From a virus (Duplodnaviria > Heunggongvirae > Uroviricota > Caudoviricetes), in IMG/VR virus record IMGVR_UViG_2663763326_000006: 36,849 nt of DNA; one strand, given 5' to 3'. Of this stretch, positions 22,392-29,289 are shown in pieces. The notes below the pieces were generated by a model. The model was given only the letters and a program-made list of their open reading frames with translations, was not told the DNA's origin and did no database searches. Positions within the stretch are counted from its first letter, which is position 1; the number at the start of each line of letters is the position of its first letter. The position numbers were made by a program, and so were the translations under genes.

Positions 22392-22642
22392 TGAAAGAAT
22401 ACCGCTATTCCGGCCCGGCCAGCGGCGTCACGCTGTCGGACGGAACCGAAATCCTGCTCTGGCCGGGGAAGACGGTTTCCCTGCCGGAGGAGCATGACTA
22501 CGTGAAGGTACTGGTGGCGCTGAAACATCTGACGCCGGTACCTGAAGAGACTAAACCCGCCGGCACACCGGCTGTGCAGTCACCAAAGCGCAGAAGCAGC
22601 AGTGACAGCGAAGTGAAAACGGAGGACACCCATGGCAGCTAA
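22388..22642 (+). CDS. Mu gp38-like small protein (84 aa)
   Basis: Synteny; overlaps neighbours. Confidence 0.45.
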   Translation: MMKEYRYSGPASGVTLSDGTEILLWPGKTVSLPEEHDYVKVLVALKHLTPVPEETKPAGTPAVQSPKRRSSSDSEVKTEDTHGS

Positions 22643-24059
22643 CTATCTGCATGGTCCCGAAACCATTGAGGTGGAAAACGGTGCCCGCCCGGTTAAAACG
22701 GTGAAATCTGCCGTTATTGGCCTGATTGGTACCGCCCCGATGGGGGATGTCAATACGCTGGTACAGTGCCTGTCTGAGAAAGACGCAGCGGCATTTGGCA
22801 GCCAGTTCACCGGCTTTACCATTCCGCAGGCGCTGGATGCGATTTATGACCATGGTGCAGGCACCGTTCTGGTCATTAACGTCCTCGACCCGGCGAAACA
22901 TAAAACGGCGATCGAGGATGAGGTGGTTACCTTTGACAAATCGACAGGGCAGGCCAGACTGGCGCATCCGGTTGTCGCTAATGTGGTGGTGAAAAACAGT
23001 GAAGGCAGCACCACCCACACGGCGAACACGGACTACCGTGTTGATGCGCAGGCGGGTGTGCTCACGAACCTGGGCAAGGCTATTGAGGCCGGTGGCAGCG
23101 TGAAGGTGAGCTATGAGTACGCGGACCCGTCGAAGGTGACTGCGGCGGACATCATCGGCGGGGTGAACAGCGCCGGAAACCGAACCGGCATGAAGCTGCT
23201 TAACGACAGCTTCAACCTGTACGGCTATTTCGCCAAAATTCTGATTGCGCCGGTGTTCTGCACCCAGAAGAGTGTCGCAGTTGAGCTTATCGCCATGGCA
23301 GAGAAGCTGGGCGCGGTAACCTACATTGATGCGCCTGTCGGTACCACCTTTGCACAGGCTCTGGCAGGTCGTGGCCCGGAAGGCACCATCAACTTCAATA
23401 CCAGCTCCGACCGCGTCCGTCTGTGCTATCCGCATGTGAAGGTATATGACCCGGTGACAAACACAGAGCGTCTGGAGCCGCTCAGCCAGCGTGCAGCAGG
23501 TCTGCGTGCCAGAGTCGATCTGGACAAGGGCTACTGGTGGTCATCCTCCAATCAGGAGATTCTGGGGATCACCGGCGTGGAGCGCCAGCTGTCCGCGATG
23601 ATTGATGACCCGCAGAGTGAGGTGAACCTGCTTAACGAACAGGGGATCACCACGGTATTCAGCAGTTACGGCAGCGGCCTTCGTCTGTGGGGTAACCGGA
23701 CGGCAGCATGGCCAACGGTCACCCATATGCGTAACTTTGAGAACGTTCGCCGCACCGGTGATGTGATCAACGAGTCCATTCGTTATTTCAGCCAGCAGTA
23801 CATCGACATGCCGATTACTCAGGCGCTGATTGATGCACTGACGGAGTCGGTCAACGCCTACGGTCGCAAAATGACTGGTGATGGTGCGGTACTGGGCTTC
23901 CGTTGCTGGTTTGATCCGGCCCGCAATCCGGAGACGGAGCTGGCCGCCGGGCACCTGTTGCTGAGCTACAAATATACGCCACCACCGCCGCTGGAGCGAC
24001 TGACGTTTGAGACTGAGATCACCTCGGAATACCTGTTAACCCTGAAAGGGGGCAACTGA
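22632..24059 (+). CDS. contractile tail sheath protein (475 aa)
   Basis: Size and position directly before the tube gene. Confidence 0.85.
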   Translation: MAANYLHGPETIEVENGARPVKTVKSAVIGLIGTAPMGDVNTLVQCLSEKDAAAFGSQFTGFTIPQALDAIYDHGAGTVLVINVLDPAKHKTAIEDEVVTFDKSTGQARLAHPVVANVVVKNSEGSTTHTANTDYRVDAQAGVLTNLGKAIEAGGSVKVSYEYADPSKVTAADIIGGVNSAGNRTGMKLLNDSFNLYGYFAKILIAPVFCTQKSVAVELIAMAEKLGAVTYIDAPVGTTFAQALAGRGPEGTINFNTSSDRVRLCYPHVKVYDPVTNTERLEPLSQRAAGLRARVDLDKGYWWSSSNQEILGITGVERQLSAMIDDPQSEVNLLNEQGITTVFSSYGSGLRLWGNRTAAWPTVTHMRNFENVRRTGDVINESIRYFSQQYIDMPITQALIDALTESVNAYGRKMTGDGAVLGFRCWFDPARNPETELAAGHLLLSYKYTPPPPLERLTFETEITSEYLLTLKGGN

Positions 24060-24580
24060 TGTCAAAGATTGAGATAAACCGCATCACGAATGCCAACATC
24101 TATCTGGATGGTACTAACCTGCTGGGACGGGCTGAGGAAGTTAAACTCCCCGATGTCTCCATGATTATGCAGGAACACAAGGCGCTGGGGATGGTGGGTA
24201 AGGTGGAACTCCCGGCTGGTTTTGACAAACTGGAAGGCGAAATCAAATGGAACAGCTTTTACCGCGATGCGATGCTGTCTGCCGCGAACCCGTACAGGTC
24301 GCTGGCACTGCAGTGTCGTTCCAGCGTCCAGCGCTACAGCTCGCAGGGGCTGATTGACGAAATCCCGCTGGTCACCTTCCTGACGATTATGTTCAAGAAG
24401 AACCCGCTGGGGACGTTCAAACAGCACGAGAACGCCGAGTTCTCCAGTAGCTTCACCTGCACGTATATCAGACAGGTACTGGATGGTGAAGAGCTGCTGC
24501 AACTGGACTATCTGGCCAACATCTTCCGGGTCGGCGGTGTTGATCAACTGACTGACTACCGTATCAATATCGGGGGCTGA
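24059..24580 (+). CDS. tail tube protein (173 aa)
   Basis: Size and ATGA overlap with sheath gene. Confidence 0.8.
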   Translation: MSKIEINRITNANIYLDGTNLLGRAEEVKLPDVSMIMQEHKALGMVGKVELPAGFDKLEGEIKWNSFYRDAMLSAANPYRSLALQCRSSVQRYSSQGLIDEIPLVTFLTIMFKKNPLGTFKQHENAEFSSSFTCTYIRQVLDGEELLQLDYLANIFRVGGVDQLTDYRINIGG

Positions 24581-24582
24581 CG

Positions 24583-24864
24583 GTGAGTGTTGAACTGACG
24601 GATAAAGGAGGACGATGTGCGGCACTGGGCATGTCAAATGGTACGTGGTTTACCCTCCTTGATATTCCGGGGGTGGAAACCCTTTTTAATACCCGTAAAA
24701 CCAATGACCCGATTGACTGCACACGTTCAAAGGCCCGCAAACTGGCGGATTTGATTGAAGCATGGGAGCCTCCCGACCACTGGTTCTCCGGCATCGGCAA
24801 ATCTGAGGGAAAGACGCTTCTCATCGCTTTCCTGCGTAACTGCAAGGGGTTTCGCACTTGCTGA
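24583..24864 (+). CDS. hypothetical protein after tail tube (93 aa, GTG start)
   Basis: ORF ends just before a terminator hairpin; no recognisable motif. Confidence 0.35.
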   Translation: MSVELTDKGGRCAALGMSNGTWFTLLDIPGVETLFNTRKTNDPIDCTRSKARKLADLIEAWEPPDHWFSGIGKSEGKTLLIAFLRNCKGFRTC

Positions 24865-24871
24865 CATCACA

Positions 24872-24895
24872 GGGGCTCCGGCCCCTTCTTCTTAA
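24872..24895 (+). terminator. rho-independent terminator GGGGC-TCCG-GCCCC followed by T-rich tract
   Basis: GC stem-loop followed by TTCTTCTT. Confidence 0.5.
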
Positions 24896-24899
24896 TCTC

Positions 24900-24909
24900 C
24901 TTTAATATC
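24900..24909 (+). promoter_or_regulatory. CTTTAATATC motif, candidate late-promoter element upstream of chaperone and tape-measure genes
   Basis: 53 bp upstream of ATG 24962, immediately after the terminator. Confidence 0.35.
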
Positions 24910-24961
24910 CGTCACGCGCTTCTCCCGACATACTGCCCTGAACTTACACAGGAGCACAATC

Positions 24962-25297
24962 ATGTCACAGACCCCATCCGATACTTTTAAATTGTCTTAT
25001 CCCTTCACCACTGCTGCAGGCACCAGAATTGAGCTGGTTGAACTGAAACGCCTGACGGTAAAAGACCTGAAGCAGGTGCGCAAAATCAGCAAAAACCCGG
25101 CAGACTGGGACGAACCGCTGATTGCCCGCAGTACTGGTCTTCTCCCGGAGGATCTCGACAATATGGATCTGGCTGATTACCTGCAGTTACAGAAACGATT
25201 TCAGCTCATCACGGGGATGGGTGAGAGCAACCAGGGCGCTGACGCAGGCGCAGGGGCTGCTGGCGAGATGGTTCCGGTTTCAGCCGGGGGAGATTGA
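24962..25297 (+). CDS. tail assembly chaperone (P2 gpE-like, 111 aa)
   Basis: Small acidic protein between tube and tape-measure genes; overlapping ORF in +1 frame encodes an acidic extension. Confidence 0.65.
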   Translation: MSQTPSDTFKLSYPFTTAAGTRIELVELKRLTVKDLKQVRKISKNPADWDEPLIARSTGLLPEDLDNMDLADYLQLQKRFQLITGMGESNQGADAGAGAAGEMVPVSAGGD

Positions 25298-25379
25298 TGC
25301 CCTCGATACTGACGATCTGGAGATGTGGCTGGAGCAGGCTGAAGAGCAAATCAAAAGCGAGTACGGCGACAAATCATAG
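25287..25379 (+). CDS. frameshift extension of the tail assembly chaperone (E-prime-like)
   Basis: +1 frame reads EIDALDTDDLEMWLEQAEEQIKSEYGDKS from a GGGGG run three codons before the chaperone stop. Confidence 0.4.
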   Translation, partial: GEIDALDTDDLEMWLEQAEEQIKSEYGDKS

Positions 25380-25454
25380 TACAGACAGCCGCCAGTAGCG
25401 GCTGTTCTGCGTTATCCCCTCACGTCTTTTCACCTTCCCCGGAGGTTAACCACT

Positions 25455-28405
25455 ATGTCGGGACAGTTTTCAGTCGGCGTTGTTATCGGCGGGATGATTG
25501 GCAGCACATTCCGTTCTGCAATGAGCGGTACCCGCCGTGCGCTTGATTCCCTGAGCGATACCTCACGCCGCCTGCAGGAACGTCAGAACGCTTTAACCCG
25601 TGCAACAGAACGTTATGGTCAACTGGGTTCTTCCCGGATGCAGCATCTCAACAGCGAGCTGCTGCGGGTAAGCCGCACCATGGAGCAAATTGAGCGCCAG
25701 CAGCGCCGTCTGTCAGCGGCATCCGCTACCAGTGATGCGCTGAAAGCTAACCGCATGGCGCTGTATGGTCAGGGGATTGAAGCGTATGGCATGGCACAGA
25801 CTGTTTATCATACGGTTTCCCCTGCCGTTCAGCAGTCCATGTCTTTTCAGGACAAAATGATTGATATGTCGATCACCGCAAAATATGACAATAAAACGCG
25901 GGATGCACTTGCCGGACAGATAAAAGGCTGGGCGCTTAAATACAATCAGTATCAGGATGAGCTGCAGGAGGCGATGGGTTCACTCATCAGCGACAATATT
26001 GATAATGTGTCAGATATCGGTTTTCTGATGCCGGATATTGCCCGCGCGGCAACGGCAACACGCACGTCTGCTCAGGACTGGGCAAAAGTGGCCGCAGTCT
26101 GGCAAAACTCCCTGAAAGGCGCGGCCAGAGATTTTGGTGCCGTTCAGAATATTATGGCTTATGCCGGTGACCAGGGGTCATTTGAAATCCCGGATCAGGT
26201 CAAGTGGATGCAGTCCCTGGCCCCAATGATGGCGGGTATTGCCAGTGGAAAAGAGGCTGTTGCTGAAATCGGGGCCAGTCTCCAGATAGCAAAAATCGGT
26301 GCAGGTTCCACCGACGAAGCAGCCAATAATTTTAAAAACTTTCTTACCAAAATTTTTGCCCGCGATACTCAGAAACAGTTTGCTGATCTGGGTATTGATT
26401 TGCAGGGATCTATTGCGAGTTATAAAGCTGCGGGGATCTCTCCGATTGAAGGGATGTTGAGTGTTATAGAACGTTACCTCAATGCCAAAAGCCCCGAAGC
26501 GCTGGCCGGCTTCAAATCAGCCATGAAAATAAAGAATGATACGGCAAGAGATGAGGCACTTCAGGCTCTGGCGAAAAACTTTGGTCTGGGCGATATGTTC
26601 GCGGATATGCAGGTCATGGCATTTATCCGCCCGATGCTGGCCAACATGGACAGATATCGAGAGATCCGTGCCGGTGCTCTCAGGGCTGCGGATAACGATT
26701 TGCTTGCCAGTGCTTATGATCAGCGGCTGAAATCTCCCCTTGAAGCCACTAAAACACTTATGGTCAGCAGTCGCGATCTGGCAATTACGCTGGGCGATCA
26801 ATTAGCTCCATCTTTTATTTCTCTGACTCAGGACTTGCTCCCACTCATTCAGGGGACAAAACACTGGGTGGCGACTCACCCGCAATTTGTCAGTGGGGCT
26901 TTTAAGCTCATCAGTGCGCTCCTTGCGATTAAGATAGCGACTGTTGGTCTCAAACTGGGGCTGAATCTCCTTATTTCCCCCTTTGTGAACGTCTGGAAAA
27001 CTGCTGTTTTACTCCGGACCAACTGGCATCGACTGACTACCGCACTCGGAGAAGGTGGCAAATTACGCTGGCTTGTCACTGGATTCAGCCGACTGACCAG
27101 CGGAGGACTGAAACTCAGCAAAGTTCTGGCGGGCAGCCTCGTTCGCGGTTTTATGAGCGCTGCACGTGCCGTTCTCTGGATTGGGCGAGCGCTGATGATG
27201 AATCCCATCGGTCTCGTTATCACCGCTGTCGCGGCAGCAGCTTACCTTATCTACCGCAACTGGGGGCAGTCAGTGGCTGGTTTAAACAGCGCTGGGCTGA
27301 CATTCAGGAAGCCTTTAACGGCGGTATCGCGGGAACTGGTAAGCTGCTGATTAACTGGTCGCCGGCAGGCCTGCTCTATAAAGCCTTTGCGGCTGCGCTG
27401 AAATATTTCGGCGTTACTCTGCCGGCAAAGTTCACCGACTTCGGTGGCCATCTTATCGACGGTTTGATTAACGGTATCAAAAACAAATGGGGGTCGCTCA
27501 AATCCAGTGTAACCGGAATGGGTGACAGCATCAGTAGCTGGTTTAAACAATGCTGGGCTGACATTCAGGAAGCCTTTAACGGCGGTATCGCGGGAACTGG
27601 TAAGCTGCTGATTAACTGGTCGCCGGCAGGTCTGCTCTATAAAGCCTTTGCAGCTGCGCTGAAATATCTTGGTGTTGATCTGCCGGCAAAGTTTACCGAC
27701 TTCGGTGGCCATCTTGTCGATGGTCTGATTAACGGTATCAAAAACAAATGGGAGTCGCTCAAATCCAGTGTAACCGGAATGGGCGACAGCATCAGTGGCT
27801 GGTTCAGCGAAAAGCTGGGCATTCATTCGCCGAGCCGCGTGTTTATGGGCTTTGGTGACAATATCGCGCAGGGGGCCGCCATTGGCCTGCAGCGGACCAC
27901 TCCGCTTGCAGCTCTGGCCGGGCAGCGAATGGCCAGTGAACTGCTCCCCAGAATGCCCGTGAGCATTCAGGGGCCAGAAATACGGGATAACACTTCAGGT
28001 GTTCGCTTCAGTATGCCGTTGCCCGATATCAATGGGTTTATGTCGTCTGCTAAAAATGCGATCGGAGCCGTAATCAATAGTTTGTCTTCCATGCCCGCTA
28101 TTCCGCTCTCCACCCGGGCATCGATTTTACCAGGGCAACGTCTGGCAAATGAGATGACACCGGATGTTCCCCGTATCCCCTCGCCTGAAATCCTGGCTGC
28201 CGGATATTCAGGCCGTGGTGCAGCTGCAACCGGCGGTGGAACGTCTGGTGGTATCCAGGTCAGCTTTAATCCTCAGTTTTTCCTCAATGGCAGGGAAACC
28301 ACAGCGCCTGCAGGACTGACTGGTGCCCTGAATATGAGTCTGCATGAGCTGGAAAAAATGCTGGAGCGTCTGCTGGCTCAGAAACAACGTAAGGAGTACC
28401 GCTGA
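25455..28405 (+). pseudogene. tail tape-measure gene split by a frame break (25455-27350 frame 0; continues in frame 2 to 28405)
   Basis: Frame 0 ends in a junk tail at 27350; frame 2 continues as a credible product from about 27267; break coincides with GGGGG at 27262-27266. Confidence 0.7.
27276..27797 (+). repeat. tandem direct duplication, 2 x 261 bp (87 codons), inside the tape-measure gene
   Basis: Two near-identical units (GCTGGTTTAAACA ... GACAGCATCAGT) differing at a handful of positions. Confidence 0.85.
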
Positions 28406-29289
28406 TGTTTGCCGTACTGGGTGATATTGAGTTTGAGCTGATTACCTACTGGGACGGCTTCGAGGCCACGTTCGGCGTCGATTATGCGGAGCATGCCCGC
28501 ATCGGGGGTAAGCCTGGTCTGCAGTTCGTCGGCGACAGGCTGGACGAAATCCAGATAACTCTGGTTTTCCATCAGCATTATTGTGTACCCGATGTGGAGC
28601 TGGCGAGACTGCGAACAGCCATGAAAGCCCATCAGGCACTGGCGCTGGTCTTCGGCAACGGTGACTATCGCGGCTGGTTCGTGATCACCGATGTGACTGC
28701 AACCAGCGAGCAGACTGACAGTACCGGCAACGTGCTGGCTGTCAGTGCCACCGTGTCTCTCCGGGAATACACCGGTGACCCGAAAAATCCTCTGCAACCA
28801 CCGGCAATACGCACGAAGCTCCCGGGTGTCGGGGCGGTCTCCGGTGCCATACCTTCACCTTCAGGGGTGGCGCAGTTCATCCGCAACGGCGTCAACTATG
28901 CGAAACAGGCGCAGTCTGTACTCCAGACCACTATCAGCGCCGTTCGGGTGACACAGAAAATGAAGGATAACCCCGTTGTCGCACTGACCCGTGTGCCGGG
29001 GCTGATGAGCGGACTGGGTAATATCTCCGGGGCTCTGGGGAAAAGTGTTCCGGCGTTTAACGCACTCTCTGAATCCATGCCCGATGCCATCAGTCTGGCC
29101 AGAACAGCCAGCGAAGCAGCCACGTATGTACAGCAGGCACAGTCTGCGCTGAGTGGTGTGGACAAAAGAAATATTGCAGGTGCTCTGGATACCGTTTCCG
29201 GGCAGCTTAACGCCGTCGGCACAGCATTCAACCGCATGTCTCCGGGATTAAGTGCAATGGCCGCCAGAATACTGACGAGGAGTGTGTGA
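28405..29289 (+). CDS. tail protein with P2 gpU-like N-terminal domain and C-terminal extension (294 aa)
   Basis: Position after tape measure in P2 gene order; start overlaps tape-measure stop. Confidence 0.45.
   Translation: MFAVLGDIEFELITYWDGFEATFGVDYAEHARIGGKPGLQFVGDRLDEIQITLVFHQHYCVPDVELARLRTAMKAHQALALVFGNGDYRGWFVITDVTATSEQTDSTGNVLAVSATVSLREYTGDPKNPLQPPAIRTKLPGVGAVSGAIPSPSGVAQFIRNGVNYAKQAQSVLQTTISAVRVTQKMKDNPVVALTRVPGLMSGLGNISGALGKSVPAFNALSESMPDAISLARTASEAATYVQQAQSALSGVDKRNIAGALDTVSGQLNAVGTAFNRMSPGLSAMAARILTRSV

Follow-up and report, generated by a model that had tools for sequence, protein, structure and literature searches.

A conserved CGA_TTT_C motif as the candidate site of a +1 frameshift in the tail assembly chaperone gene of BcepMu-type prophages

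The Caudoviricetes record IMGVR_UViG_2663763326_000006, a stretch of 36,849 nucleotides (nt) that we call the window and whose first letter is position 1, carries a BcepMu-type prophage whose tail module is of the P2 type. Its tail assembly chaperone gene, E, is overlapped at its 3' end by a conserved extension, E', that is encoded in the +1 frame. We consider it very probable that the shift of frame joining the two is programmed and takes place upstream of position 25218, and the comparison of related genes points to CGA_UUU_C as the likely place where ribosomes would move forward by exactly one base. This motif lies ~85 bases upstream of the run of five G residues (G5 run) that had been named as the shift site in the original prediction, a model's reading of the window's letters made without database searches.

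E and E' are encoded in two conserved overlapping frames

Positions 24000-26000 of the window are 100% identical to Escherichia phage PhiKM (genus Bcepmuvirus); with Klebsiella phage KP12 and Escherichia phage Phi06_2974 B the identity is ~86%. The original prediction had recognised an E-like tail assembly chaperone in the open reading frame (ORF) that ends at 25297, and this assignment was borne out. The ORF closes with a TGA at 25295-25297 and matched PF10109 ('Phage tail assembly chaperone proteins, E, or 41 or 14') with 74.8 bits against a cutoff of 25, and it is placed between a tube gene (PF04985) and a tape-measure gene (PF10145), as the chaperone class requires. It is annotated as 'tail protein E' in PhiKM and as 'phage tail assembly protein' (WP_000084213.1) in RefSeq. 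The short protein E is presumably the abundant product.

The codons of E start at positions that leave a remainder of 2 on division by three and those of the extension at positions that leave 0, an offset of +1 or, equivalently, -2. In this frame the acidic peptide ...EIDALDTDDLEMWLEQAEEQIKSEYGDKS is read from an ORF that is stop-free from 25122, overlaps the 3' end of E and ends at 25379, just before the tape-measure gene. The -1 frame translates into RRRRGCWRDGSGFSRGRLMPS..., which is Arg-rich and interrupted by stops. The first reading of the sequence was thus right in dismissing the -1 frame as junk, and right that a long form requires a +1 (or -2) and not a -1 shift. Joined to residues 1-80 of E, E' gives a protein of 138 amino acids (aa) and ~15.9 kDa, E+E'.

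At the protein level, conservation of E' reaches at least as far upstream as the Trp codon (25218-25220) and is very strong from LLARWFRFQP (25257) on; across 25256-25264 we counted 33 substitutions that are synonymous only in the +1 frame and none that are synonymous only in the other. The window peptide alone stayed below the threshold for PF06528, the E' domain (E 0.01, 15.8 bits vs a cutoff of 23), and 18 of 21 relatives matched this domain at E <=0.1, the best of them at 6.2e-6. When the E' family profile was aligned with the P2 E' peptide, hhalign returned 90.7% with an E value of 1.2e-6. A search of NCBIfam gave no match for the fused E+E' or for E', and a PDB sequence search gave no match either.

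To see how general the arrangement is, related loci were gathered from genomes (59), IMG/VR (80) and phages (9), and the E and E' domains were placed separately by tblastn. E' lies in the +1 frame relative to E in 142 of 149 related loci, which come from Enterobacterales, Burkholderiales and Pseudomonas. The exceptions are three loci scored as in-frame owing to indels and four scored as -1. Three of the latter (L006, L069 and L070) are Pasteurellaceae phage and prophages that carry the canonical heptamer G_GGA_AAG, from which it follows that the chaperone family switched its frameshift direction at the same domain boundary. The Pasteurellaceae heptamer sits a few codons downstream of the column that holds TTT_C in the BcepMu-like clade. 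The fourth locus, L151, is a KP12-like variant with a G5-to-G4 deletion; since it retains TTT_C, it was grouped with the indel variants.

Stop codons and codon phasing bound the position of the shift

Offsets below are counted from position 25199 of the window, where the Phe80 codon of E has its first T. Seven loci from betaproteobacteria and Pseudomonas have a TGA in the +1 frame at -11 to -9, which places the shift at or after -8. On the downstream side, zero-frame stops were found at +30 (Pseudomonas phage Bise), +33 and +45. In addition, a Trp codon of the +1 frame (TGG at +19 to +21) has a base entropy of only 0.13-0.14, with values of ~1.9 in the adjoining columns. This Trp is at least 90% conserved in the +1-frame peptide alignment, and the zero-frame residues at the same place vary (L, M or V, followed by G, D, A or V). 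Judged from these sequences, the stops and the conserved Trp together restrict the shift to 25191-25217.

Synonymous substitutions gave a matching picture. A minimum-spanning tree was built from 101 unique sequences, and the changes along its branches that are synonymous in just one of the two frames were tallied. In the E domain upstream of the site, 495 substitutions are synonymous only in frame 0 vs 70 only in the +1 frame, and from +37 to +74 the relation is reversed, with 20 synonymous only in frame 0 vs 97 only in +1. The switch of synonymous phase falls between -7 and +30.

CGA_TTT_C is conserved at the nucleotide level

Within 25191-25217, TTT_C (25199-25202) is the only slip-prone motif that is invariant. 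TTT followed by C was present in all 107 unique +1 genes whose E alignment covers the column, and entropy is 0 at all four positions. The zero-frame codon after TTT is variable (CAG, CAA, CAT, CTG, CGC, CGT or CGG, encoding Gln, His, Leu or Arg), with a first base that is always C. Elsewhere in the E genes TTT accounts for 49% of the Phe codons; at this column it is retained even in phages of high-GC Burkholderia (TCC TTT CGC in BcepMu), Ralstonia and Pseudomonas. The preceding codon is biased as well: of the 100 unique genes with Arg at that place, 98 use CGA, which makes up 25 of 432 (6%) of the other Arg codons of E genes. In the protein alignment, the codon of the P2 slip site (GGT_TTT_TTG, -1) aligns to the Phe80 column. 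A zero-frame UUU followed by a pyrimidine, with an open +1 frame, is also what defines a UUU_Y shift site.

If the shift takes place at this motif, one start codon would give rise to two proteins. Most ribosomes would read 24962-25297 and release the 111-aa E, and a minority would shift by +1 at CGA_UUU_C. In these ribosomes the P-site peptidyl-tRNA-Phe (anticodon GAA), paired to UUU with a G:U wobble, would slip forward to UUC, where it would have a full Watson-Crick match; reading would restart at AGC (25203) and end at the TAG at 25377-25379, yielding the 138-aa E+E'. The rare CGA codon, which would then occupy the E site with a weak I:A wobble, may favour the slip. The efficiency of the shift would fix the ratio of E to E+E'. 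If the pair works as lambda G/GT and P2 E/E+E' do, the tape-measure protein would be coated by the N-terminal domain common to both forms, and the tube protein would be brought in by E'. What the sequences show are the two frames with their homology, the bounds on the shift and the nucleotide conservation of CGA_TTT_C; we infer that the shift is ribosomal, that UUU_C is its exact location, how efficient it is and what the two domains do. The wider proposition that CGA_UUU_C is a conserved programmed +1 ribosomal cassette, used across the clade with no need of a stop codon or an RNA structure, seems to us on balance the better bet. This BcepMu-like clade of prophages with P2-type tails is present in ~12% of complete E. 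coli genomes and also in Salmonella, Pectobacterium, Burkholderia, Ralstonia and Pseudomonas.

Several observations weigh against a site at exactly CGA_UUU_C. The zero-frame codon after UUU is mostly CAG, which is not slow; a Shine-Dalgarno-like element upstream of the site was looked for and not found; and RNAalifold did not find a conserved downstream RNA structure among 13 diverse homologues, its consensus being a weak GU-rich hairpin of -4.3 kcal/mol with a covariation term of -0.08. With an ordinary next codon and no such element or structure, the efficiency would depend on how prone UUU_C is to shift by itself. TTT_C is also found at 21 further, non-conserved places in these E genes, which indicates that the tetranucleotide alone is not strongly avoided. 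Moreover, the sequences share phylogeny, so that 107 of 107 overstates their independence, and synonymous phasing is ambiguous from -6 to +29, which means that synonymous substitutions alone cannot pinpoint TTT_C. Finally, a divergent +1 homologue from a Gallionellaceae metagenome-assembled genome (L067) does not have Phe at this column, so that TTT_C is not shared throughout the wider family. Of the further candidates that were tried, a fold predicted from the window only (z = -2.6) was rejected as a stimulator on the ground that it is not conserved, and GCA_GGG_GCT (25250-25258) was rejected as a site because it lies downstream of the zero-frame stops of Bise (+30) and of the Symbiopectobacterium/Arsenophonus group (+45).

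Alternative explanations

The original prediction had placed a +1 or -2 slip on the G5 run itself, in GCC_GGG_GGA_G (25286-25292) and in resemblance to CGG_GGG_CGA of Mu, which would produce the junction peptide ...EMVPVSAG(G)EIDALDTDDLEMWLEQAEEQIK. The run was correctly described, with GGGGG at 25286-25290 and the stop three codons after its start; the extension, which was said to begin within GGGGGAG, does not begin there, as E' is conserved upstream of it. A slip at the run would agree with the verified -2 shift of Mu, which uses a G5 run shortly before the stop; the zero frame of the window reaches the run and the +1 frame continues from it. In addition, the distant homologue L067 has CTT_CGG_GGG_CTT just before its stop (~1430-1455), at the domain boundary and in the same CGG_GGG_C context as the Mu site. 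However, among the 101 unique +1 homologues the run is missing in 53, which have GCC GAG TGA instead (Pro-Ser-Glu in the +1 frame), and in 28 it lies behind a zero-frame stop. These 28 comprise KP12, Phi06_2974 B and 26 more. The stop is a TAG at the equivalent of 25274-25276; in the two named phages, the three substitutions that turn TTC CGG into TTT AGA there all leave the +1-frame peptide unchanged and disrupt frame 0. A shift at the run would also leave the product without the best-conserved part of E', to which the Trp and LLARWFRFQP belong and in which +1-frame constraint was seen from +37 to +74; the run itself falls inside the conserved E' motif LLARWFRFQP(S/G)EID. We regard the G5 run as a very improbable shift site. 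A programmed +1 shift at another position within 25191-25217, with TTT_C conserved for some other reason, has somewhat more to be said for it and is still unlikely in our view. The bounds set by the stops and the Trp permit any position from -8 to +18, a stretch in which the synonymous phasing is ambiguous, and at GGG_A (25214-25217), for instance, tRNA-Gly (UCC) could re-pair from GGG to GGA in the window, where the residue before the Trp is Gly in both frames. Against GGG_A, the codon at 25214-25216 is variable (GGG, GGT, GGC, AGC or TGG) and is followed by A, C, G or T, and most lineages could not re-pair; any such position would moreover leave the invariant TTT and C, with the CGA bias, otherwise unexplained.

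E' might instead be a separate small protein with a start of its own, such as the GTG at 25221, which has a G-rich stretch just upstream. The +1 ORF has been annotated independently often enough to form a PHROG (phrog_8286), and BcepMu gp42, phiE255 gp16 and Komp_PAO1_1 CDS0016 are annotated as independent ORFs. Such a start would nevertheless be hard to reconcile with the alignment, in which no start-codon column is conserved (the best columns are occupied in 36-40 of the 101 unique sequences) and 10 of the 101 lack any ATG, GTG or TTG ahead of LLARW. The conserved Trp also lies upstream of the GTG, and the homologous P2 E' is made as an E+E' fusion, all of which renders a separate E' quite improbable. 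Even less credence can be given to an artefact or mutation, that is, to an extra base inserted into the G run of an originally continuous ORF, the alternative offered in the original prediction, or to RNA-polymerase slippage on a homopolymer. Variants with four Gs that fuse the frames do occur in L013, L072 and L151 and in a few Logan assemblies (P0003-P0005, P0007-P0009), and the tape-measure gene of the window itself has a one-base deletion in a G6 run. But of 5426 complete E. coli genomes, 637 matched a 561-nt region around the gene and 576 did so at >=99% identity; the genomes at the top of the list, which come from many separate projects, are 100% identical over the 561 nt. The 111-aa and related short forms were found on >1,400 contigs vs ~20 with the frame-fusing G4 forms. 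Deleting one G would yield a protein without the conserved LLARWFRFQP, and the +1 offset is unaltered in homologues lacking a G run. With respect to slippage, 40 of the 101 sequences have no homopolymer longer than 3 nt within the bounds of the shift, which is too short for the polymerase to slip. We hold either form of this explanation to be extremely improbable, and CGA_UUU_C remains the reading that we prefer.

Sporadic one-base indels fuse or break the frames at differing places (loci L012, L013, L072 and L151; proteins P0001-P0011). In L012 (Apirhabdus) the deletion lies five codons upstream of TTT and in P0001 the loss is inside a G3 run; a change from G5 to G4 is present in L013 (Erwinia tracheiphila), L072, L151 and P0003-P0005. 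These variants look like errors or decaying prophages. Natural in-frame E-E' fusions were likewise tried as markers of the junction and rejected, as their junctions are scattered, they occur on few contigs and they look like sporadic indels.

Genomic neighbourhood

The features discussed here are collected in Table 1.

Table 1. Features of the tail module and of the E/E' frames in the window.
Feature	Position	Strand	Remarks
Sheath gene	22632-24059		Pfam sheath domains
Tail tube gene	24059-24580	+	PF04985, E 2.9e-53; upstream neighbour expected for a chaperone gene
93-aa ORF, function not known	24583-24864		phrog_1239
Chaperone ORF E, 111 aa, ~12.0 kDa	24962-25297	+	PF10109 Phage_TAC_7, E 5.5e-21, residues 8-81
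Proposed +1 cassette CGA_TTT_C	25196-25202	+	TTT = Phe80; C25202 = base that would be skipped
E' extension, 58 codons, SSSRGWVRATRALTQAQGLLARWFRFQPGEIDALDTDDLEMWLEQAEEQIKSEYGDKS	25203-25379	+	+1 frame; TAG stop 25377-25379; phrog_8286, E 2.7e-34
+1-frame Trp codon TGG	25218-25220	+	Sixth residue after the proposed shift; sets the downstream limit
Core E' motif LLARWFRFQPGEID	25257-25298	+	Most conserved part of the extension; includes the G run
G5 run	25286-25290	+	Part of Pro-Gly-Glu codons in the +1 frame; indel hotspot; not the shift site
Tape-measure gene	25455-28405	+	PF10145; downstream neighbour; two ORFs in the window
P2 gpU-like gene	28405-29289		PF06995

The 93-aa ORF between the tube gene and E is conserved (phrog_1239 at E 4.7e-48, with a sub-threshold match to DUF7739), and P2 has no gene at this place. 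A terminator-like hairpin with a T-rich tail follows it at 24871-24886. Between the stop of E' and the start of the tape-measure gene, an inverted repeat, CAGCCGCC-AGTA-GCGGCTG, is present at 25384-25403. Its stem is kept in KP12 and Phi06_2974 B, with differences in the loop and the adjacent bases; the T tail is poor, and the repeat was not scored as a terminator.

In the window the tape-measure gene is split into ORFs at 25455-27350 and 27464-28405, because the G run at 27262-27266 has five Gs where PhiKM and E. coli AR_0086 have six. The tape measure of AR_0086 is intact with 983 aa. The best complete E. coli genome match to the 161-nt stretch at this run was 99.4% identical, the difference being one gap. 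The five-G run in this gene is either a homopolymer sequencing error or the mark of a defective prophage. The gene also contains a 261-nt (87-codon) tandem duplication at 27270-27791, the copies of which are 94% identical; this duplication would make the tape measure, and with it presumably the tail, longer than in KP12 (821 aa).

Annotation and significance

The long E+E' product is unannotated in the GenBank and RefSeq records that we examined. The Prokaryotic Genome Annotation Pipeline (PGAP) calls only the 111-aa protein, and in some phage records E' appears as a 'hypothetical protein' of its own (phrog_8286). In the BcepMu type genome (AY539836, 4603-5364; our locus L010) the annotation gives the roles of lambda G and T to gp42 and gp43. 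Homology identifies gp41 as the E-like chaperone and gp42 as the +1-frame E', which would be reached through TCC_TTT_CGC, and the gp42/gp43 frameshift call is probably wrong. A search of the literature found no paper that describes a +1 shift in BcepMu-like chaperones, which is not proof of absence. Once corrected, the annotation of hundreds of genomes would gain an essential protein of tail assembly.

If true, CGA_UUU_C would join prfB among the very few places in E. coli where +1 recoding occurs naturally, and the PF10109 family would have switched among -1 (P2, Pasteurellaceae), -2 (Mu) and +1 at one domain boundary. A deeply conserved CGA_UUU_C would in addition provide a natural and easily assayed model of +1 shifting at UUU_Y, with a possible contribution of the E site. 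As a matter of method, bounds derived from stop codons in two frames across homologues locate a shift site far better than the spotting of homopolymers.

Comparison with known frameshift systems

Different tailed phages use -1, -2 or +1 shifts in their tail-chaperone genes, with -2 in Mu (Atkins et al. 2016, PMC5009743). As all three are documented, this behaviour is already known for the gene class, and the +1 direction is not surprising to specialists; the original prediction overstated the case in calling it unusual.

In P2, gpE and gpE+E' are made by a programmed -1 frameshift at T_TTT_TTG (Christie et al. 2002, cited in PMC3931495). The window shares with P2 the PF10109 domain, a homologous E' (PF06528), the gene order of sheath, tube, E/E', tape measure, U, X and D, and a candidate shift codon that aligns at the same domain boundary. 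It differs from P2 in that a +1 shift is needed and not -1, in having CGA_TTT_C and no T6G, and in the extra 93-aa ORF between the tube gene and E. The -2 frameshift that yields gp41 and gp41-42 of Mu was verified experimentally (Xu, Hendrix & Duda 2004, PMID 15469818, as annotated in AF083977). Here the likeness lies in an extension in the +1/-2 frame, the Phage_TAC_7 family name and the location upstream of the tape-measure gene. Unlike the window, Mu slips on a G5 run (CGG_GGG_CGA) eight codons before the stop, whereas the G5 run of the window lies inside E' and is not conserved; the Mu extension had no Pfam match when scanned alongside the E' peptides, and what we propose for the window is +1 P-site slippage and not a -2 shift. 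The E/E' pair combines the domain content of P2 with the frame direction of Mu and has the slip-site features of neither. In function it would correspond to lambda G/GT and to E/E+E' of P2.

The gpG/gpGT pair of lambda (PMC5009743) is alike in its nested products from one start, in a chaperone gene immediately upstream of the tape measure and in a low-level shift that presumably sets a fixed product ratio; it has no sequence similarity to E/E', and lambda shifts by -1 on a heptamer. A canonical -1 heptamer X_XXY_YYZ was not found in the overlap of E and E', and only the Pasteurellaceae relatives carry such heptamers. The closest parallels to the candidate site are the shift-prone UUU_Y sites, at which +1 shifting has been described for YopN-TyeA of Y. 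pestis and at UUU in an integrative and conjugative element (ICE) (PMC5009743), and the influenza PA-X cassette, UCC_UUU_CGU (PMC5009743), which TCC_TTT_CGC of BcepMu nearly copies. At prfB, weaker E-site pairing favours +1 shifting (PMC5009743). The candidate site resembles the UUU_Y and PA-X sites in its zero-frame UUU followed by a pyrimidine, in requiring no stop codon and in the relevance of the E-site codon. It would differ from them in its gene context and in the conserved E-site codon, which here is CGA.

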